A DNA stretch of 64,000 bases from Escherichia coli O127:H6 str. E2348/69 (lineage in GTDB: Bacteria > Pseudomonadota > Gammaproteobacteria > Enterobacterales > Enterobacteriaceae), in the NCBI RefSeq assembly GCF_000026545.1, contig NC_011601.1. One strand, written 5' to 3'. The position numbers were made by a program, and so were the translations under genes. The notes under the pieces were generated by a model. That model saw only the letters and a list, made by a program, of their open reading frames with translations, had not been told where the DNA came from and made no database searches. Within the stretch, counting starts at the first letter, position 1. The number at the start of each line of letters is the position of its first letter. Below are positions 32,735 through 55,235 of this stretch, piece by piece.

Positions 32735-32855
<121 letters not shown>

Positions 32856-37169: not shown

Positions 37170-38336
37170 ATGAACTTACATGAATATCAGGCAAAACAAC
37201 TTTTTGCCCGCTATGGCTTACCAGCACCGGTGGGTTATGCCTGTACTACTCCGCGCGAAGCAGAAGAAGCCGCTTCAAAAATCGGTGCCGGTCCGTGGGT
37301 AGTGAAATGTCAGGTTCACGCTGGTGGCCGCGGTAAAGCGGGCGGTGTGAAAGTTGTAAACAGCAAAGAAGACATCCGTGCTTTTGCAGAAAACTGGCTG
37401 GGCAAGCGTCTGGTAACGTATCAAACAGATGCCAATGGCCAACCGGTTAACCAGATTCTGGTTGAAGCAGCGACCGATATCGCTAAAGAGCTGTATCTCG
37501 GTGCCGTTGTTGACCGTAGTTCCCGTCGCGTGGTCTTTATGGCCTCCACCGAAGGCGGCGTGGAAATCGAAAAAGTGGCGGAAGAAACTCCGCACCTGAT
37601 CCACAAAGTTGCGCTTGATCCGCTGACTGGCCCGATGCCGTATCAGGGACGCGAACTGGCGTTTAAACTGGGTCTGGAAGGTAAACTGGTTCAGCAGTTC
37701 ACCAAAATCTTCATGGGCCTGGCGACCATTTTCCTGGAGCGCGACCTTGCGCTTATCGAAATCAACCCGCTGGTTATTACCAAACAGGGCGATCTGGTTT
37801 GCCTCGACGGCAAACTGGGTGCTGATGGCAACGCACTGTTCCGCCAGCCTGATCTGCGTGAAATGCGTGACCAGTCGCAGGAAGATCCGCGTGAAGCACA
37901 AGCTGCACAGTGGGAACTGAACTACGTTGCGCTGGACGGTAACATCGGTTGTATGGTTAACGGCGCAGGTCTGGCGATGGGTACGATGGACATCGTTAAA
38001 CTGCACGGCGGCGAACCGGCTAACTTCCTGGACGTTGGCGGCGGCGCAACCAAAGAACGTGTAACCGAAGCGTTCAAAATCATCCTCTCTGACGACAAAG
38101 TGAAAGCCGTTCTGGTTAACATCTTCGGCGGTATCGTTCGTTGCGACCTGATCGCTGACGGTATCATCGGCGCGGTAGCAGAAGTGGGTGTTAACGTACC
38201 GGTCGTGGTACGTCTGGAAGGTAACAACGCCGAACTTGGCGCGAAGAAACTGGCTGACAGCGGCCTGAATATTATTGCAGCAAAAGGTCTGACGGATGCA
38301 GCTCAGCAGGTTGTTGCCGCAGTGGAGGGGAAATAA
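37170..38336 (+). CDS. sucC: Succinyl-CoA synthetase beta subunit
   Basis: 388-aa [21 protein letters not shown]…. Confidence 0.97.
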
Positions 38337-39205
38337 TGTCCATTTTAATTGATAAAAACACCAAGGTTATCTGCCAGGGCTTTACCGGTAGCCAGGGGAC
38401 TTTCCACTCAGAACAGGCCATTGCATACGGCACTAAAATGGTTGGCGGCGTAACCCCAGGTAAAGGCGGTACTACCCACCTCGGCCTGCCGGTGTTCAAC
38501 ACCGTGCGTGAAGCTGTTGCTGCTACTGGCGCTACCGCCTCTGTTATCTACGTACCAGCACCGTTCTGCAAAGACTCCATTCTGGAAGCTATCGATGCAG
38601 GCATCAAACTGATTATCACCATCACTGAAGGCATCCCGACGCTGGATATGCTGATTGTGAAAGTGAAACTGGATGAAGCAGGCGTTCGTATGATCGGCCC
38701 GAACTGCCCAGGCGTTATCACCCCGGGGGAATGCAAAATCGGTATCCAGCCGGGTCACATTCACAAACCAGGTAAAGTGGGTATCGTTTCCCGTTCCGGT
38801 ACGCTGACCTATGAAGCGGTTAAACAGACCACGGATTACGGTTTCGGTCAGTCGACCTGTGTTGGTATCGGCGGCGACCCGATCCCTGGCTCTAACTTTA
38901 TCGACATCCTCGAAATGTTCGAAAAAGATCCGCAGACCGAAGCGATCGTGATGATCGGTGAGATCGGCGGTAGCGCTGAAGAAGAAGCAGCGGCGTACAT
39001 CAAGGAGCACGTTACCAAGCCAGTTGTGGGTTACATCGCTGGTGTGACTGCGCCGAAAGGCAAACGTATGGGTCACGCAGGTGCGATCATTGCCGGTGGT
39101 AAAGGGACTGCGGATGAGAAATTCGCAGCTCTGGAAGCCGCAGGCGTGAAAACCGTTCGCAGCCTGGCGGATATCGGTGAAGCACTGAAAACTGTTCTGC
39201 AATAA
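38336..39205 (+). CDS. sucD: Succinyl-CoA synthetase alpha subunit
   Basis: 289-aa ORF; ATG overlaps the sucC stop; CoA-binding fold, phospho-His region. Confidence 0.97.
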
Positions 39206-39305
39206 ATATCTGTAATAAGAAATAGCCCTCGCCGCTTCCCTCTACAGGAATGGCGAAGGGCTGTCGGTTTCGACATGGTTGGCCATCATATGATGGCCTT
39301 TTTTA
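39206..39305 (+). ncRNA. sdhX: SdhX (RybD) sRNA derived from the sucD 3'UTR
   Basis: About 100 nt between the sucD stop and the intrinsic terminator (ggccatcatatgatggcc plus TTTTTTAT); position matches the described 3'UTR-derived sRNA. Confidence 0.6.
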
Positions 39306-39308
39306 TGC

Positions 39309-40031
39309 TTATCGCGATGATTTTCGCTGCGCTATCAGGGTAAATTTATAGTCATCGGTATTAAAAGCGTTGCGGCTATATTCAAACACCCGGCCATCAA
39401 CTAAATATCCACGCGATACTTTTTCAAGAATCGGCTTAGTCTGGCTGATATTAAGCAGACGGCTCATTTCTTCGGTTGGCATCAGAGGAATGATTTCCTG
39501 TTCGCTACGATCGATAACCATTTTCTTCACTTCTTCAATAAAGTGATATTTCGAATTTTCCATGACCTGCCAGGTGAGATCCGGGAACAACGCAAGCGGC
39601 ATCCAGGTTTCTTCCAGCGCCATTGGCTTTTGCTTGCGATAGCGCACGCGCTTCACATGCCACACACGATCCTGTGGGGTGATTTGTAGCTGTTGCTGAA
39701 GAAAATCGTCAGCCGGAATCACTTCGAATATCAGAACTTCACTGTGTGTATCGACGTGACGGTCCGTCAGTTTTTCATCAAAACTGGTTAACTGAAAAAT
39801 ATCGTAATTGACCCGCTCTTCTTTTACGTAAGTCCCGCTGCCCTGAATACTTTCGAGGATCTGCTGTTCAACTAACTGGCGCAAAGCCTGACGCACCGTA
39901 ACCCGGCTGACGCCAAACTCTGTTTGTAGCGCTGATTCAGTGGGTAACGCATCGCCAGGTTTAAGCTCGCCACGCGCAATTTGCTCACGAATGCGATCAG
40001 CAATCTGTCGGTATAAGGGTTTCCGTCCCAT
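39309..40031 (-). CDS. mngR: GntR-family repressor MngR (FarR)
   Basis: 240-aa ORF with N-terminal GntR helix-turn-helix and UTRA-type effector domain. Confidence 0.93.
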   Translation of the reverse strand: MGRKPLYRQIADRIREQIARGELKPGDALPTESALQTEFGVSRVTVRQALRQLVEQQILESIQGSGTYVKEERVNYDIFQLTSFDEKLTDRHVDTHSEVLIFEVIPADDFLQQQLQITPQDRVWHVKRVRYRKQKPMALEETWMPLALFPDLTWQVMENSKYHFIEEVKKMVIDRSEQEIIPLMPTEEMSRLLNISQTKPILEKVSRGYLVDGRVFEYSRNAFNTDDYKFTLIAQRKSSR

Positions 40032-40140
40032 GATTTAGCATCTCATTAATACGAATTTAGCCATTATGCCCGATAAATTCATCCTGCAAATAATACAAAT
40101 ACAATACAAATAATTTCAATAAAGTGAAATTGATCACATA

Positions 40141-40531
40141 ATGGTGTTGTTTTATCGGGCACACTGGCGCGACTATAAAAACGATCAAGTGAGGATCATG
40201 ATGAATCTGACGACTCTGACCCACCGCGATGCGTTGTGTCTGAATGCGCGCTTTACCAGCCGTGAAGAGGCCATCCACGCGTTGACTCAACGTCTTGCTG
40301 CTCTGGGGAAAATTTCCAGTACTGAGCAATTTCTGAAAGAAGTGTATTGCCGTGAAAGCCTTGGCCCGACCGCCTTAGGTGAAGGGCTGGCTGTGCCGCA
40401 TGGCAAAACTGCTGCGGTAAAAGAAGCGGCGTTTGCGGTCGCCACACTCAGCGAGCCGCTTCAGTGGGAAGGCGTGGATGGCCCGGAAGCGGTTGATTTA
40501 GTGGTGTTGCTGGCGATTCCCCCCAATGAAG
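40141..40531 (+). pseudogene. mngA: mngA 5' fragment (PTS EIIA domain of the mannosylglycerate permease), truncated by the IS50-like element
   Basis: About 131 codons of the PTS fructose-type EIIA domain (…GLAVPHGKTAA… phospho-His region) run directly into the IS left end at 40532, where the frame continues into IS sequence and stops. Confidence 0.8.
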
Positions 40532-42081
40532 CTGTCTCTTATACACAAATCCCCACCCGGGGATTTGTGATGTCTGTCAGTCTGCTTTAGGGGGACTCTT
40601 TCCATCCGGTAGTTTCCTTCCTCCCCGGCAGCGATTTTTTGAACTTTTTCCTCACCCGTTGATCTTCTCTTATATTTCATTTTCTTCGGGTCTGTTATGG
40701 TACTTTCTGATTGTTATTCATGGGCTAACGAGCAGTTTGGACATGCCCGTCTCGGTGATCCGCGTCGTACACGACGCCTTGTGTCACTGGCCTCTTCTCT
40801 CGCTCAGCATGCAGGTCTTTCTATTGTGAAATCATCCCAGTCCACTGCTCAGGTTGAAGGTGCGTACCGCCTGATACGTAACCCGTCTGTGTCCCCGCAA
40901 GCCATTGCCGAAGCCGGATTTACCGCCACTGTAAGGGCATGTGAGGCTCATCCGCTGCTCCTCGCGCTGGAAGACACCACCACCATTAACTTCAGTCACA
41001 GTACGGCATCTGATGACCTGGGGAATACCACCACTAACCCGAAGACGCGCGGGCTGCTGGCTCACTCTGTCCTGATGTACGCCCCCGACAGCGCCCTGCC
41101 AGTCGGTCTTATCGAACAGCAGCGCTGGAGTCGTGCCACGGACACCTACGGTGTTAAGCACCAGCGAAAAGAACGTCCCTATGAAGAAAAAGAAAGTTAC
41201 CGCTGGCAGCAGGCTTCGGAGCGCATGGCCGAACGGCTGGGGGAGATACAGAAACGGGTAATCACTGTCTGTGACCGGGAAGCGGATATCTGGCATTACC
41301 TGCATTATAAAGTCAGCCACGGGCAGCGCTTCGTGGTGCGTGCAGCACAGAATCGCCGGCTGGAAGAAGCACCCGGCAAGCTCTTCGAACTGCCGGAAGT
41401 CCTGGCAACCGCGGGAAGCCACACGCTGAATGTGATGCAAAAAGGCGGGCGGGCAGCCCGCCAGGCCCGGATGTTCATCAGTTACAGCGAAGTCAGCATA
41501 AAAAATCCCGACAACAGCGGCCAGGCGCTCCCGCTCACGTATGTCTGTTGCCGGGAGCAGGCAGAGGACGGCGCCTGCTGGCATCTGCTGACGTCAGAAA
41601 AAGTGGCGAGTGCCGCCGATGCGCGACGTATCGTCAGCCATTACGAGCGACGCTGGCTGATAGAGGAATACCACAAGGCGTGGAAAAGTGGTGGTACATG
41701 TGTGGAATCGCTGCGAATGCAGACCCGGGATAACCTCGAGCGCATGGTGGTTATCAAGGCGTTTATCGCGGTGCGGGTGCTGGGCCTGCGGCAGGGCGGT
41801 ATCAGTGAAGAAACACAAAATGACAGCTGTGAGAAAATACTGACGCCGACAGAGTGGAAACTGCTGTGGGTTAAGCTGGAAGGAAAACCGCTTCCGTCAC
41901 AGATGCCGACACTGAAATGGGCCTGTCTGAAACTGGCGAAACTGGGGCGATGGCATGACAGCAAACGCACCGGTCGCCCCGGTTGGGTAGTCATGTGGGA
42001 TGGCTGGTTCAGACTTCAGGATATGGTTGAGGGTTACCTGGTGATGAAGTCTCTTGATCAGGAGATCTGATCAAGAGACAG
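40532..42081 (+). mobile_element. IS50-like insertion sequence (IS4 family), about 1.55 kb, with asymmetric OE-like and IE-like termini
   Basis: Left terminus CTGTCTCTTATACACAAAT (IS50 outside-end-like); right terminus on the complementary strand CTGTCTCTTGATCAGATCT (IS50 inside-end-like, two GATC sites); one 457-aa DDE transposase ORF fills the element; the 9 bp flanking the two ends differ (ccaatgaag vs cccgggcga), so there is no target-site duplication. Confidence 0.85.
40697..42070 (+). CDS. IS4-family (IS50/Tn5-like) DDE transposase
   Basis: 457-aa ORF; clear similarity to Tn5 transposase as recalled (LGDPRRT…, …LEDTT…, …VCDREADI…, …RWLIEEYHKAWKSG…), with all three DDE catalytic-residue contexts present. 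Confidence 0.85.
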   Translation: MVLSDCYSWANEQFGHARLGDPRRTRRLVSLASSLAQHAGLSIVKSSQSTAQVEGAYRLIRNPSVSPQAIAEAGFTATVRACEAHPLLLALEDTTTINFSHSTASDDLGNTTTNPKTRGLLAHSVLMYAPDSALPVGLIEQQRWSRATDTYGVKHQRKERPYEEKESYRWQQASERMAERLGEIQKRVITVCDREADIWHYLHYKVSHGQRFVVRAAQNRRLEEAPGKLFELPEVLATAGSHTLNVMQKGGRAARQARMFISYSEVSIKNPDNSGQALPLTYVCCREQAEDGACWHLLTSEKVASAADARRIVSHYERRWLIEEYHKAWKSGGTCVESLRMQTRDNLERMVVIKAFIAVRVLGLRQGGISEETQNDSCEKILTPTEWKLLWVKLEGKPLPSQMPTLKWACLKLAKLGRWHDSKRTGRPGWVVMWDGWFRLQDMVEGYLVMKSLDQEI

Positions 42082-42142
42082 CCCGGGCGAAGAGGGCTGC
42101 TTTGGTCCACGTCGATCCAATATCGACAGAGACGATTTGCAT
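42082..42142 (-). pseudogene. 20-codon 5' stub of a glmL/mutL-like gene (glutamate mutase reactivase component), cut by the IS right end
   Basis: Minus-strand ATG overlapping the glmS-like stop (TGATG) opens [20 protein letters not shown], an ASKHA-type N-terminal phosphate-1 motif, and runs directly into the IS end. Confidence 0.55.
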
Positions 42143-42591
42143 CAGATTGCCTCTTCAAGAATACGAGTATCAACGTCATGACGTTGGTTGATATCGTGGG
42201 CCATCAGCTGACAAACATCTTCTAAGTCATGACTTGGGGCAAAGACGCGATCAAATCCCATCTCTTTGAATTTGGTTTCCACGTCAGCGAAGTCATGTTT
42301 TCCGACCACCAGGTTACCGCCCACATAGAGCAGGATGTCCCCCAGTCCACGCTCGATGCAGCGTTCGCGCATGCCCAGACAGTCGATATCGCCATGCCCA
42401 TAGATAGAGGAGACGACAATCGCGTCAGCGCCAGTTTCAATGGCCGCATCAATATATTCGTCCTGGCTGACCATTACGCCCAGATTAATGACTCTGAAGC
42501 CATGGTTGCTAAAAACGCGGTCCAGAACTTTATTGCCTACTGCATGGCAGTCCGCGCCAATAACGCCAATCACAAGTGTTGCTTTCTTCAT
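42142..42591 (-). CDS. Methylaspartate (glutamate) mutase S-subunit-like cobalamin-binding protein
   Basis: 149 aa from [21 protein letters not shown]… with an AAGGA ribosome-binding site 7 nt upstream; carries the DxHxxG B12-binding motif (DCHAVG) and is closely similar to the clostridial GlmS/MutS S chain as I recall it. Confidence 0.75.
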
Positions 42592-43137
42592 GGGTAATCC
42601 TTTGTAAGACAGAGAGTAAAATAAGTTACACACGTCGTATTTATGGCCGTTCATAACGGCACAGGTTTAATATCACAGGAGTGTCTTTATCTGACCGTAA
42701 TGTTGCAATTGATCTATTTTCAAAATGTCTTTCGGGAAATGATTGTTTAAAGTATGTTGTTAAATTCTCATGTTAATTCAGTGTGTTATGTCAACTAATG
42801 TCATGAATGTTAAATTTTTAAAATTAACTTGATTTGGTGTATTGAGGTATTTGTGATCTACTTCTAATTTGCATTTTAGTGATATGGGTTTAGCCATGAG
42901 TAAATGCATTTCATAAAATTTAAGTCGAATTTCACTGCAATTCATCTCTGCTTAATGTAAAAATAATGTTGAAAATAACAAATGGTTAATGATTCATGCG
43001 AATTATGACCTTAGTTAGCTCTTTTGATTTTTCGTAAAAAAGAGAGGTACATGAAGGTGCTACCAGTATGAGTAACGTTAATCAAAGGTTTTATTACCTC
43101 TGGCAATAACGCAGGCCATTTTCGCGACTGGGTGGAT

Positions 43138-43560
43138 TTAATCAGTATAATCCTCATACAATAGTTCACGATTAACTGAACCGTTAACGGGGATTTGGTG
43201 TTGAAATTTAGAAATGGCGGAGTCAATTAATGAAGACAATATCGAAAAAATGACAGTGTCAGAATTAATTTCAATTAATCCTTCTCGTTGTTGACCAAAA
43301 AAGATATTTATCTTGATTTCATTTGTACTACGGCAATCAATATGTAGTAATTTTTGATCGCTGAGATTTTCTGTTTCATAAATGTTTTTGGCGATAGTCG
43401 GATGAATTGATGCCAGACATCTGCTCAGATAAGCCAGTTCCTTTAGGGAACACCCCGCTGAGTAGAGGATGTCAGAGAATTTTTGTGTGTCAACTGTTGT
43501 CTCTGAAGCGTATGTTGCATTGACAGGAAGGGTGTTGAAAGAGATTTGAGATGGGATCAT
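43138..43560 (-). CDS. Hypothetical protein, 140 aa, no recognisable domain; downstream gene of the AT-rich two-gene cassette
   Basis: ORF-track ORF MIPSQISFNTLPVNATYASE…; GGAAAG about 10 nt upstream; AT-rich codon usage unlike the flanking core genes; no signal peptide or TM segment apparent. Confidence 0.5.
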   Translation of the reverse strand: MIPSQISFNTLPVNATYASETTVDTQKFSDILYSAGCSLKELAYLSRCLASIHPTIAKNIYETENLSDQKLLHIDCRSTNEIKINIFFGQQREGLIEINSDTVIFSILSSLIDSAISKFQHQIPVNGSVNRELLYEDYTD

Positions 43561-43640
43561 TATTTAAATCTTTCCGTGAGTAATAAAAATTAATCCCCGG
43601 GCATTGTTTAGCAATATTTGCCACAGGGAATATATAAAAA

Positions 43641-44585
43641 TTAAAGTATTTGATTGGCATCGGTTAACTGATCAATAACCAGTGCCAGATTGGTAAACAT
43701 TTTGAAAAAGCGATACTGGCTCGGAATATCTCTTTCAAAGACGAAACATTCAATGTCATTGTTTGAAAAATAAAGGACTAGTGTTGCTGATTCGTCAGGA
43801 AAAATATGGAAATATATCTGGTTACCAGAAGGAGGATAGTCCAGAAGAAGGGTATCTTTGCCCGTCACATACCTGTTGTGGTCGTGGATGCTGCGCTCAC
43901 ACTTCATCAGAGGTGTCATGATACTCATGTATTCATCTGATGTTAATATATTAAAATCACCATCCATTTTAAAGAAACGATAAAGTAACAGTACATCCTC
44001 TTGCGTAACCGGTTCGTTTGTTTTTAGAGGGAAATAAGTGGGAACCAGAAGATGAGGTTCTAATCTATTTTGTTGAGCGCTATAACTAAATTTGAACATA
44101 AATTCCGGATCGCTCATCAATTGAGCGACATAATTATGCCTGGCTTCAAAAATTTTAACTTTTATCAGGTTAAATAAGTCTGTTTCGTCATCCTGTATTA
44201 AAAGACATTGGCCATAGCAGTCAGGCTTTTTTTCATTATAAGCAGAAACGGTTATTCTGTCAGGAGTGTCAACGTTATATCCAAAAGCCAGATAGTGACC
44301 GTCCTCATCGAGATTTGTTTCCAGGTTATTTAAATTTATCACATGAAGTGTTTGCAATGCTGATTCAATGAGCTGTTGACTCTCTGAGGTAAATGTTTCG
44401 CGCTGCGTTGTATAAAGTGTATCGATTCCAACGACTATCCGATATGGGTCAAGGATGGCGGCAATCATCTTTATTACCTGCACAGTCACGGGTGATGTCA
44501 TTGATTCGTTATCTGTTTTTAGAGGATCATTAGATGGCCAACCTGAGAAGCGATTGACAGCCGAACCGATATTATCAGGACTCAT
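43641..44585 (-). CDS. Hypothetical protein, 314 aa, no recognisable domain; upstream gene of the AT-rich two-gene cassette
   Basis: ORF-track ORF MSPDNIGSAVNRFSGWPSNDPL…; GAGG 8 nt upstream of the ATG; AT-rich; acidic, no TM segments; 80-bp gap to the 140-aa ORF on the same strand. Confidence 0.55.
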   Translation of the reverse strand: MSPDNIGSAVNRFSGWPSNDPLKTDNESMTSPVTVQVIKMIAAILDPYRIVVGIDTLYTTQRETFTSESQQLIESALQTLHVINLNNLETNLDEDGHYLAFGYNVDTPDRITVSAYNEKKPDCYGQCLLIQDDETDLFNLIKVKIFEARHNYVAQLMSDPEFMFKFSYSAQQNRLEPHLLVPTYFPLKTNEPVTQEDVLLLYRFFKMDGDFNILTSDEYMSIMTPLMKCERSIHDHNRYVTGKDTLLLDYPPSGNQIYFHIFPDESATLVLYFSNNDIECFVFERDIPSQYRFFKMFTNLALVIDQLTDANQIL

Positions 44586-45039
44586 AGCAGCAACCTCATT
44601 GTAATCAAGCGAGGCGCTGAGCGTACTCGGCTATAGAAAAACTAACTTGCAAAAATCGCTCATTTTTCATTTATCAGGCGAAAGTGGTCTCTGTTCACTC
44701 AGAAACAATCACTCCCGCTAAGTCATACCTGTTTCATCGATACATTTAAGTGATTATTACTAATGAAACAATAACATAACGGGCTTACGGCCGGTGCTCA
44801 TAAAGGCAACAATCAATTAACTTTGATAAAAATATGTTATGTAAAATAGCAACAAATTGGCTAATCTAATCAATTGGTATTATAAAAAGTGGATAAGGCG
44901 GTTCTGTTAAATAAAACACTGGTTTTTTATCTATACCTTTTCATTGTAATAATTGTGTTGCATAAATATTTCACAATAAATTAACAATAAAATCACCAAT
45001 GATCTATGGTTTATACATAATTAACATATTTGGTTGGTT

Positions 45040-45053
45040 TTGATATAAATCAA
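45040..45053. promoter_or_regulatory. FNR-box-like site (TTGAT-N4-ATCAA) in the cydAB upstream regulatory region
   Basis: ttgatataaatcaa is an exact match to the FNR half-site consensus spacing, within the long AT-rich cydA upstream region. Confidence 0.45.
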
Positions 45054-45390
45054 TTTTTAATTCTTGAAAAAAATCTGCAAAACACGATAAATTGTCGTAG
45101 ATCAAATTGGTGAGATCGTGACAATTTCGCTATAAATTGATCACTGTCGAAAAATGCAAATTTGCTCAATAAAAACCTGTTTATTGTAAGGATTTTGCGG
45201 CGTAATATAATTACGGGATCAATTTGGTTTATTCATTAACATATTTGTAACTTTTTTATCATTGTCTTTTCCTCTTTTGATGAAATGGCAACGATAGAGG
45301 CGAGCAAATAATTTTGTATTGGGGCATGCGTGTGACCCTTTCTAACGGGGTTCACTCTCGGAGTCTTCATGCGATGAGCAAGGAGTCATG

Positions 45391-46959
45391 ATGTTAGATA
45401 TAGTCGAACTGTCGCGCTTACAGTTTGCCTTGACCGCGATGTACCACTTCCTTTTTGTGCCACTGACGCTCGGTATGGCGTTCCTGCTGGCCATTATGGA
45501 AACGGTCTACGTCCTTTCCGGCAAACAGATTTATAAAGATATGACCAAGTTCTGGGGCAAGTTGTTTGGTATCAACTTCGCTCTGGGTGTGGCTACCGGT
45601 CTGACCATGGAGTTCCAGTTCGGGACTAACTGGTCTTACTATTCCCACTATGTAGGGGATATCTTCGGTGCGCCGCTGGCAATCGAAGGTCTGATGGCCT
45701 TCTTCCTCGAATCCACCTTTGTAGGTCTGTTCTTCTTCGGTTGGGATCGTCTGGGTAAAGTTCAGCATATGTGTGTCACCTGGCTGGTGGCGCTCGGTTC
45801 AAACCTGTCCGCACTGTGGATTCTGGTTGCGAACGGCTGGATGCAAAACCCAATCGCGTCCGATTTCAACTTTGAAACTATGCGTATGGAGATGGTGAGC
45901 TTCTCCGAGCTGGTGCTTAACCCGGTTGCTCAGGTGAAATTCGTTCACACTGTAGCGTCTGGTTATGTGACTGGCGCGATGTTCATCCTCGGTATCAGCG
46001 CATGGTATATGCTGAAAGGTCGTGACTTCGCCTTCGCTAAACGCTCCTTTGCTATCGCTGCCAGCTTCGGTATGGCTGCCGTTCTGTCTGTTATTGTTCT
46101 GGGTGATGAATCTGGTTACGAAATGGGCGACGTGCAGAAAACCAAACTGGCTGCTATTGAAGCCGAGTGGGAAACGCAACCTGCGCCTGCTGCCTTTACT
46201 CTGTTCGGCATTCCTGATCAGGAAGAGGAGACGAACAAATTTGCGATCCAGATCCCTTACGCGCTGGGCATCATTGCAACGCGTTCCGTGGATACTCCAG
46301 TTATCGGCCTGAAAGAACTGATGGTGCAGCATGAAGAACGCATTCGTAACGGGATGAAGGCGTACTCTCTGCTCGAGCAACTGCGTTCTGGTTCTACCGA
46401 CCAGGCGGTTCGTGACCAGTTCAATAGCATGAAGAAAGACCTCGGTTACGGTCTGCTGCTGAAACGCTATACGCCAAACGTGGCTGATGCGACTGAAGCG
46501 CAGATTCAACAGGCAACCAAAGACTCCATTCCGCGTGTAGCGCCGCTGTACTTCGCGTTCCGTATTATGGTGGCGTGTGGCTTCCTGCTGCTGGCAATCA
46601 TCGCGCTCTCTTTCTGGAGTGTCATCCGCAACCGCATTGGCGAGAAAAAATGGCTGCTGCGCGCCGCGCTGTACGGTATTCCGCTGCCGTGGATTGCTGT
46701 AGAAGCGGGCTGGTTCGTGGCTGAATATGGCCGCCAACCGTGGGCTATCGGTGAAGTGCTGCCGACAGCTGTGGCGAACTCGTCACTGACCGCAGGCGAT
46801 CTCATCTTCTCAATGGTGCTGATTTGCGGCCTGTATACCCTGTTCCTGGTGGCAGAATTGTTCTTAATGTTCAAGTTTGCACGCCTCGGCCCAAGCAGCC
46901 TGAAAACCGGTCGCTATCACTTTGAGCAGTCTTCCACGACTACTCAGCCGGCACGCTAA
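45391..46959 (+). CDS. cydA: Cytochrome bd-I ubiquinol oxidase subunit I
   Basis: 522 aa from [28 protein letters not shown]…; the supplied ORF starts one Met earlier. Confidence 0.96.
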
Positions 46960-52912: not shown

Positions 52913-53458
<546 letters not shown>

Positions 53459-53467
53459 GAGAATTGC

Positions 53468-54259
53468 ATGAGCAGTAACTTCAGACATCAACTATTGAGT
53501 CTGTCGTTACTGGTTGGTATAGCGGCCCCCTGGGCCGCTTTTGCTCAGGCACCAATCAGTAGTGTCGGCTCAGGCTCGGTCGAAGACCGCGTCACTCAAC
53601 TTGAGCGTATTTCTAATGCTCACAGCCAGCTTTTAACCCAACTCCAGCAACAACTCTCTGATAATCAATCCGATATTGATTCCCTGCGTGGTCAGATTCA
53701 GGAAAATCAGTATCAACTGAATCAGGTCGTGGAGCGGCAAAAGCAGATCCTGTTGCAGATCGACAGCCTCAGCAGCGGTGGTGCAGCGGCGCAATCAACC
53801 AGCGGCGATCAAAACGGTGTGGCGGCATCAACGACGCCGACAGCTGATGCTGGTACTGCGAATGCTGGCGCGCCGGTGAAAAGCGGTGATGCAAACACGG
53901 ATTACAATGCAGCTATTGCGCTGGTGCAGGATAAATCCCGCCAGGATGACGCAATGGTGGCATTTCAGAATTTCATCAAAAATTACCCTGATTCAACTTA
54001 CCTGCCAAACGCCAATTATTGGCTGGGTCAGTTAAACTACAACAAGGGTAAAAAAGATGATGCGGCGTATTATTTTGCTTCGGTAGTGAAAAACTATCCG
54101 AAGTCACCGAAGGCTGCAGATGCGATGTTTAAAGTCGGCGTCATCATGCAGGACAAAGGTGACACCGCAAAAGCGAAAGCCGTATACCAGCAGGTTATCA
54201 GTAAATACCCTGGTACTGATGGCGCTAAACAGGCGCAAAAACGTCTGAACGCTATGTAA
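53468..54259 (+). CDS. cpoB: Cell division coordinator CpoB (YbgF), TPR protein
   Basis: 263-aa ORF with signal peptide, coiled-coil and C-terminal TPR repeats. Confidence 0.93.
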   Translation: MSSNFRHQLLSLSLLVGIAAPWAAFAQAPISSVGSGSVEDRVTQLERISNAHSQLLTQLQQQLSDNQSDIDSLRGQIQENQYQLNQVVERQKQILLQIDSLSSGGAAAQSTSGDQNGVAASTTPTADAGTANAGAPVKSGDANTDYNAAIALVQDKSRQDDAMVAFQNFIKNYPDSTYLPNANYWLGQLNYNKGKKDDAAYYFASVVKNYPKSPKAADAMFKVGVIMQDKGDTAKAKAVYQQVISKYPGTDGAKQAQKRLNAM

Positions 54260-54422: not shown

Positions 54423-54498
54423 GGGTCGTTAGCTCAGTTGGTAGAGCAGTTGACTTTTAATCAATTGGTCGCAGGTTCGAATCCTGCACGACCCACCA
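54423..54498 (+). tRNA. lysT: tRNA-Lys (anticodon UUU)
   Basis: 76-nt GGGTCGTTAGCTCAGTTGGTAGAGCAGTTGACTTTTAATCAATTGGTCGCAGGTTCGAATCCTGCACGACCCACCA with encoded CCA. Confidence 0.95.
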
Positions 54499-54533
54499 CT
54501 AACATAGTTAGTTGTAGTATCCAGCGTAGTATC

Positions 54534-54609
54534 GGGTGATTAGCTCAGCTGGGAGAGCACCTCCCTTACAAGGAGGGGGTCGGCGGTTCGATCCCGTCAT
54601 CACCCACCA
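54534..54609 (+). tRNA. valT: tRNA-Val (anticodon UAC)
   Basis: 76-nt GGGTGATTAGCTCAGCTGGGAGAGCACCTCCCTTACAAGGAGGGGGTCGGCGGTTCGATCCCGTCATCACCCACCA. Confidence 0.95.
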
Positions 54610-54611
54610 CC

Positions 54612-54687
54612 GGGTCGTTAGCTCAGTTGGTAGAGCAGTTGACTTTTAATCAATTGGTCGCAGGTTCGAATCCTGCACGACCCACCA
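54612..54687 (+). tRNA. lysW: tRNA-Lys (UUU)
   Basis: Identical 76-nt tRNA-Lys sequence. Confidence 0.95.
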
Positions 54688-54738
54688 CTAATGACGGTGG
54701 GTTCGGTGGAAGTAGTTTGTAGTATCCAGCGCAGTATC

Positions 54739-54814
54739 GGGTGATTAGCTCAGCTGGGAGAGCACCTCCCTTACAAGGAGGGGGTCGGCGGTTCGATCCC
54801 GTCATCACCCACCA
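54739..54814 (+). tRNA. valZ: tRNA-Val (UAC)
   Basis: Identical 76-nt tRNA-Val sequence. Confidence 0.95.
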
Positions 54815-54817
54815 CTC

Positions 54818-54893
54818 GGGTCGTTAGCTCAGTTGGTAGAGCAGTTGACTTTTAATCAATTGGTCGCAGGTTCGAATCCTGCACGACCCACCA
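54818..54893 (+). tRNA. lysY: tRNA-Lys (UUU)
   Basis: Identical 76-nt tRNA-Lys sequence. Confidence 0.95.
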
Positions 54894-54941
54894 ATTTTAA
54901 ACATTGGTTCCGAGTAGAAATCTTTCAGGTAACACCCGTAT

Positions 54942-55017
54942 GGGTCGTTAGCTCAGTTGGTAGAGCAGTTGACTTTTAATCAATTGGTCGCAGGTTCGAA
55001 TCCTGCACGACCCACCA
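54942..55017 (+). tRNA. lysZ: tRNA-Lys (UUU)
   Basis: Identical 76-nt tRNA-Lys sequence. Confidence 0.95.
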
Positions 55018-55050
55018 TCCTGAATGATTAAAGCAGCATAATCCCGCAAG

Positions 55051-55126
55051 GGGTCGTTAGCTCAGTTGGTAGAGCAGTTGACTTTTAATCAATTGGTCGC
55101 AGGTTCGAATCCTGCACGACCCACCA
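55051..55126 (+). tRNA. lysQ: tRNA-Lys (UUU)
   Basis: Identical 76-nt tRNA-Lys sequence; first copy of the 109-bp tandem unit. Confidence 0.95.
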
Positions 55127-55159
55127 TCCTGAATGATTAAAGCAGCATAATCCCGCAAG

Positions 55160-55235
55160 GGGTCGTTAGCTCAGTTGGTAGAGCAGTTGACTTTTAATCA
55201 ATTGGTCGCAGGTTCGAATCCTGCACGACCCACCA
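55160..55235 (+). tRNA. tRNA-Lys (UUU), extra eighth gene of the array (second copy of the 109-bp tandem unit)
   Basis: Identical 76-nt tRNA-Lys sequence preceded by the same 33-nt spacer as the previous gene. Confidence 0.93.

Follow-up and report, generated by a model that had tools for sequence, protein, structure and literature searches.

The DxHxxG ... SxL ... GG fingerprint marks base-off/His-on cobalamin binding, and the S subunit of glutamate (methylaspartate) mutase, GlmS or MutS, binds cobalamin weakly when isolated from its E subunit. Catalysis by glutamate mutase requires an E2S2 complex, in which GlmE holds the active and substrate site and the histidine that ligates cobalamin comes from GlmS (PDB entries 1ccw and 1i9c). 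The genomic island that carries these genes in Escherichia coli was described, with its gene content, distribution and enzymes, by Kronen and Berg in 2015 (PMC4682846), who reported it in 26.5% of E. coli and in 90.6% of O157:H7, always with fumD. The same paper described for Clostridium kluyveri a 'rudimentary' glutamate-fermentation cluster with a single mutase subunit gene (PMC4682846), and orphan subunits are therefore not unprecedented. As far as can be compared from that description, the C. kluyveri cluster is like the locus examined here in having one glutamate mutase subunit left and differs from it in the content of the remnant and in that no IS junction was reported there.

The locus lies in a 64-kb stretch of DNA from E. 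coli O127:H6 strain E2348/69, the whole of which was analysed and is called the window below. With the fumD island of O157:H7 and other Enterobacteriaceae (PMC4682846) it shares the site beside cydA, glmS and two AT-rich hypothetical genes, at about 98-99.9% DNA identity, but it is missing glmL, glmE, mal and the AtuA/DUF1446 and DUF4387 genes, as well as the gltP-like symporter gene, fumD, cobO/cobA and the gene of the LysR regulator. Of the co-localised glmS-glmL-glmE-mal genes with fumD, cobA and LysR that characterise the island, the window thus holds glmS only. The locus is very probably the right-hand stump of an enterobacterial glutamate-to-mesaconate/citramalate (methylaspartate pathway) island, in which an IS-associated deletion of 25,025 bp left glmS as a relic.

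The glmS gene (42142..42591, minus strand; WP_000710397.1) is intact and encodes 149 aa plus a stop, its translation starting with the ATG at 42591 and ending with a codon at 42145, followed by the stop at 42144-42142. A sequence-only reading of this DNA had singled out a 149-aa ORF with a DxHxxG motif and likened it to the clostridial methylaspartate mutase S chain, and both points were borne out. The motif reads D14-C-H16-A-V-G19 in the translation, and the protein passed both NCBIfam equivalogs, NF002612 with 254 bits against a cut-off of 110 (E = 2.8e-76) and TIGR01501 with 246.6 bits against 135.8, in addition to containing the Pfam B12-binding domain PF02310 (E = 1.3e-14). The top PDB matches were S chains of clostridial glutamate mutase, 1i9c, 1ccw, 1b1a and 1be1 (E = 1e-49 to 1e-50), with C. 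cochlearium GlmS (1i9c_A) aligning at E = 1.4e-50 and 62.1% identity over 124 aa, followed by ornithine aminomutase as the second-best family at E = 2.8e-07. On this evidence the protein is a methylaspartate mutase S subunit, and no different B12 family emerged. The methylmalonyl-CoA mutase C-domain and MetH were rejected as identities, as were ornithine and lysine aminomutase, with scores far under the NCBIfam cut-offs.

Compared with the GlmS/MutS of C. cochlearium and C. tetanomorphum (1ccw, 1i9c, 1be1), the protein falls in a similar length class (149 aa against 137) and shares the fingerprint in the form DxHxxG...SxL/I...GG. The B12-binding residues D14, H16, G19, S61, G91 and G92 are identical in the E2348/69 and C. 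cochlearium proteins, whereas position 63 of the fingerprint is I instead of the clostridial L, and the 25-residue C-terminal end has no alignment to the clostridial chain. A further difference is that neither the window nor the assembly NZ_LT903847.1 encodes a GlmE partner for the E2348/69 GlmS, which hence forms no holoenzyme.

Downstream of glmS lies glmL' (42083..42142, minus strand), the opening 20 codons of the gene for the accessory protein (reactivase) of the mutase, whose ATG at 42142-42140 shares a base with the end of the glmS stop codon (TGATG). That the glmS stop overlaps the start of a 20-codon stub, that the stub belongs to a GlmL component and that an IS cuts it off had all been proposed before, and each proved correct: the overlap and the stub at 42142-42083 were read as described, the stub is identical at 20 of 20 residues to the N-terminus of GlmL in strain 2022H047, and the element ISEc13 cuts glmL at junction 42081/42082, base 42082 being the one that opens codon 21. 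Codons 1-20 are all that E2348/69 retains of a full-length GlmL (~462 aa), and the 510 bases 42082-42591 are the exact extent that matches glmS-glmL of intact islands. The open frame of glmL' continues into three IS-derived codons (AVS) before a stop at 42073-42071.

Upstream, a Shine-Dalgarno-like AAGGA read from the sequence (42599..42603, minus strand) precedes the glmS ATG by 7 nt, and the AT-rich intergenic region (42592..43137; 546 bp, 32.6% GC), presumably the promoter region of the operon, is retained. A promoter scan of 41900-43300 gave no consensus sigma-70 site on the minus strand, and no terminator was found in a scan of the same interval. With its ribosome-binding site and upstream region in place, glmS may still be transcribed, possibly along with the coding sequence of a 23-aa peptide that fuses GlmL' to IS residues. 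As modelled, a read-through transcript from glmS would meet a hairpin formed by a perfect 13-bp palindrome in the right end of ISEc13 (42049..42079; arms GTCTCTTGATCAG and CTGATCAAGAGAC); the fold of 42030-42150 on the minus strand had a minimum free energy of -45.5 kcal/mol and a z-score of -4.66.

The left neighbour is the intact gene mngR (39309..40031, minus strand), encoding the repressor of the mannosylglycerate operon, recognised both as an ORF and in RefSeq. It is still intact although its operon is lost. Next to it, mngA' (40201..40531, plus strand) comprises the first 110 codons, the EIIA domain, of the gene of the PTS mannosylglycerate transporter and is cut by ISEc13. NCBIfam model NF007293 covers this piece at model positions 2-111 of 639, RefSeq calls it 'incomplete; missing C-terminus', and homology to 2022H047 on this side stops at 40531/40532; the truncated frame (40141-40590, plus strand) holds the 110 EIIA residues and then 19 IS-derived codons, with a stop at 40588-40590. 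The RefSeq order is mngR, an incomplete 'fructose PTS transporter subunit IIA' gene (mngA'), ISEc13, whose gene is labelled 'IS4-like element ISEc13 family transposase', glmS, two hypothetical genes and cydA. These two genes (43138..44585, both on the minus strand) form the right-hand island end beside cydA and encode proteins of 140 aa (43138-43560) and 314 aa (43641-44585), with 36% and 38% GC, respectively, where the window as a whole has 51%. Every intact island examined, that of O157:H7 included, has both genes together with glmS; neither protein had an NCBIfam or PADLOC match, and a Pfam scan of the 314-aa protein gave no match.

Elsewhere in the window, matches at the Rfam gathering level were obtained for the CpoB/ybgF thermometer (53359-53497, plus strand) and for the REP-derived sRNA naRNA4 (32738-32808, minus strand), situated between sdhB and sucA, and Rfam delineated a cluster of eight tRNA genes (54423-55232, plus strand), one more than the seven annotated in strain CREC-544.

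The extent of the deletion was read against strain 2022H047, the closest complete genome, which is 99.9% identical over odhB-mngA' (99.89% over 37756-40532) and 99.6% identical over glmL'-cydB. The alignment of the window with this strain consists of two collinear blocks, one ending at 40531/40532 and one starting at 42082, and the 25,025 bp that separate them in 2022H047 are absent from E2348/69, the ancestral arrangement being presumed to match that of this one close relative. Between mngR and cydA, 2022H047 carries mngA, mngB, rtcB, hutU, a permease gene, hutD, hutI, hutG and a HAL-family lyase gene, then genes for a LysR regulator, CobO, a class I fumarate hydratase, a dicarboxylate/amino-acid symporter, a DUF4387 protein and an AtuA-family protein, and finally those for methylaspartate ammonia-lyase, GlmE, GlmL, GlmS and two hypothetical proteins. 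This fumarate hydratase is the FumD of the published island (PMC4682846). E2348/69 has therefore lost the 3' part of mngA, mngB, rtcB, the hutU-permease-hutD-hutI-hutG-HAL genes, the island's LysR regulator gene, cobO, fumD, the symporter, DUF4387 and AtuA genes, mal, glmE and all of glmL but its start.

What remains on the right (42082-45400) shares 99.8-99.9% identity with strains that have an intact island and occupies the same site beside cydA, and the GlmS accession WP_000710397.1 is common to E2348/69, 2022H047 and CREC-544, the latter two with an intact island. The sequence-only reading expected related genomes to carry the intact cluster at the mngB-cydA site, which is where it lies in 2022H047; the intact island arrangement also occurs in CREC-544 and O157:H7. 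The sucD-cydA interval as a whole is a hotspot of mosaic structure: mngRAB, rtcB, hut and the glm island are all found in 2022H047, CREC-544 lacks mngRAB, and O157:H7 lacks mngRAB, rtcB and hut.

Partner genes were sought in the window and in the genome. A tblastn search of the 64-kb window with GlmL, GlmE, Mal, AtuA, DUF4387, symporter, FumD and CobO proteins of 2022H047 recovered glmS and the 20-aa stub alone, the remaining hits having E-values of at least 0.08. The earlier statement that the window has no catalytic E subunit or methylaspartate ammonia-lyase thus stands, with nothing better than E = 0.08. In NZ_LT903847.1, one of three E2348/69 assemblies, megablast and word-11 blastn with the mal-glmE-glmL-glmS DNA found one place of 510 bp and no glmE or mal, a result read at the DNA level and covering identities of about 65-70% or more; the genome-wide search for glmE and mal called for on the strength of the sequence therefore yielded none. 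The GlmE that an E2S2 holoenzyme needs in the same genome was accordingly absent both from the window and, in near and distant DNA searches, from this assembly.

Among 5426 complete E. coli genomes the same query had matches in 1135, which spanned 80% or more of the query in 1122; in the remaining 13 of these 1135 genomes with the island, less than 80% of the stretch from mal to glmS is present. The proportion with the longer match (1122/5426, 21%) is in line with the published 26.5% (PMC4682846). In strain MLI121 (NZ_CP117016.1) an IS26 lies inside glmL and 'glutamate mutase L' is annotated twice, which is independent IS damage to the same operon.

ISEc13, of the IS4 family, occupies 40532..42081 (plus strand; 1550 bp), beginning with CTGTCTCTTATACACAAAT and ending with AGATCTGATCAAGAGACAG, and is the single copy in the window. 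Its transposase gene (40697..42070, plus strand) encodes 457 aa and scored 514 bits with the IS4 family model NF033590 of NCBIfam (cut-off 160). The right end reads CTGTCTCTTGATCAGATCT on the other strand, and CTGTCTCTT forms the terminal inverted repeat of the element. The ends at 40532-40550 and 42063-42081 (CTGTCTCTTATACACAAAT and CTGTCTCTTGATCAGATCT) seem to be very similar to the outside and inside ends of IS50/Tn5, the right one apparently being identical to the Tn5 inside end. At the right end the terminal repeat also occurs twice, in inverted order, which gives a strong RNA hairpin from either side.

Simple insertion in the IS group of ISEc13 generates a 9-bp direct target-site duplication. 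The 9-mers that flank the element here, CCAATGAAG and CCCGGGCGA, differ, so there is no such duplication; the element abuts mngA codon 110 on its left and glmL codon 21 on its right. As the flanking 9-mers are unrelated, the structure is not that of a simple insertion but of an IS-associated deletion or recombination. One copy of ISEc13 joins mngA codon 110 to glmL codon 21, and the deletion would have taken place in one step, either as an adjacent deletion promoted by ISEc13 or through homologous recombination between two copies in the same orientation. ISEc13 is highly expanded in E2348/69, with about 27-29 matching places per assembly, which makes both routes plausible, and the two cannot be told apart from this structure. 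Deletions associated with the IS4-family elements IS10 and IS50 are generally known to leave likewise one IS copy that bridges distant points without a target-site duplication, as in E2348/69, where the element is also present at many genomic places; the E2348/69 case differs in that the element is ISEc13 and in that two routes are indistinguishable from the sequence.

The two junctions also bear on the age of the event. The interval 39200-45400 had a full-length 100% match in three E2348/69 or O127:H6 records only among the 5426 complete E. coli genomes, the next-best genome covering at most 54% of it, and both ISEc13 junctions were confined to these three records. Together with a GlmS free of amino-acid changes relative to intact strains, this indicates that the deletion is probably recent and specific to the E2348/69 lineage. 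The description of the locus as a decayed remnant of a methylaspartate island accordingly needs amendment: it is a remnant, 25,025 bp being gone relative to 2022H047, but gradual decay does not fit one clean deletion beside a GlmS identical to that of intact strains.

Because E2348/69 has a long laboratory history, we considered whether the deletion could be a laboratory or assembly artefact of one stock instead of a natural event. The IS population is active, and the number of places matching ISEc13 varies between the three assemblies (27, 28 and 29), a sign that the element is probably still moving in stocks kept in the laboratory. The junctions are nevertheless identical, at 100% identity, in three separate assemblies of 4.79, 4.85 and 4.94 Mb, and that three independently assembled stocks share the deletion argues against a single-stock artefact, leaving this explanation very unlikely.

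We think it very unlikely that the orphan GlmS was kept for a use of its own, for instance as a free-standing protein that binds or sequesters cobalamin or as the partner of another B12 enzyme. In favour of such a role, the ORF is fully intact, its start and Shine-Dalgarno sequence are present, no residue of the B12-binding motif is missing and the upstream region is retained; yet intactness is also expected after a recent deletion, and identity to the GlmS of intact-operon strains gives no sign of adaptation. Both junctions are moreover confined to one strain among the 5426 genomes, NZ_LT903847.1 offers no E-type partner, and the weak cobalamin binding of isolated MutS/GlmS also speaks against this reading. 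More specifically, an orphan glmS that is expressed and newly exapted as a B12 buffer or sequestering protein, or a translationally coupled 23-aa GlmL'-IS peptide that is active, in place of a relic, strikes us as highly improbable.

It is scarcely credible that ISEc13 simply inserted in glmL in a lineage where the rest of the island and mngAB/hut were never adjacent, the ancestral order having been different, since, even though gene order at this site does vary (O157:H7 and CREC-544 without mngRAB, O157:H7 also without hut), a simple insertion, ruled out by the junction sequences, predicts a 9-bp duplication and glmL on both sides where we find mngA codon 110 on the left and differing 9-mers, and both truncated genes run on seamlessly, 25,025 bp apart, in a relative that is 99.6-99.9% identical.

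The IS-associated deletion of the island, with glmS as its relic, sets what the orphan gene can do. With no GlmE and a requirement for E2S2, a lone S subunit cannot catalyse and is not a mutase, and with Mal and FumD missing there is no pathway. Adenosylcobalamin-dependent conversion of L-glutamate to threo-3-methylaspartate would accordingly be expected to be lacking. From the known E2S2 requirement of the family we infer that the lone GlmS is a not-yet-decayed relic without catalysis. Glutamate-to-mesaconate conversion, histidine utilisation and mannosylglycerate utilisation would all have been lost in the same event.

RefSeq already lists the gene under the name glmS, and the island has been described in print (PMC4682846); the remnant is thus not new and represents ordinary genome erosion, and the locus opens no new biological question and is of modest importance. 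For the prototype enteropathogenic strain E2348/69, however, it means that three metabolic capacities, those of the glutamate-to-mesaconate/citramalate island, of the adjacent histidine-utilisation genes and of mannosylglycerate uptake and hydrolysis, appear to have been lost through a single 25-kb deletion associated with ISEc13. This is useful for metabolic models and for users of E2348/69 as a reference, and the RefSeq label 'glmS: methylaspartate mutase subunit S' is not evidence of glutamate mutase activity in this strain. A link between the island and pathogenicity has been proposed (PMC4682846), and for that proposal the E2348/69 locus is a natural negative control.
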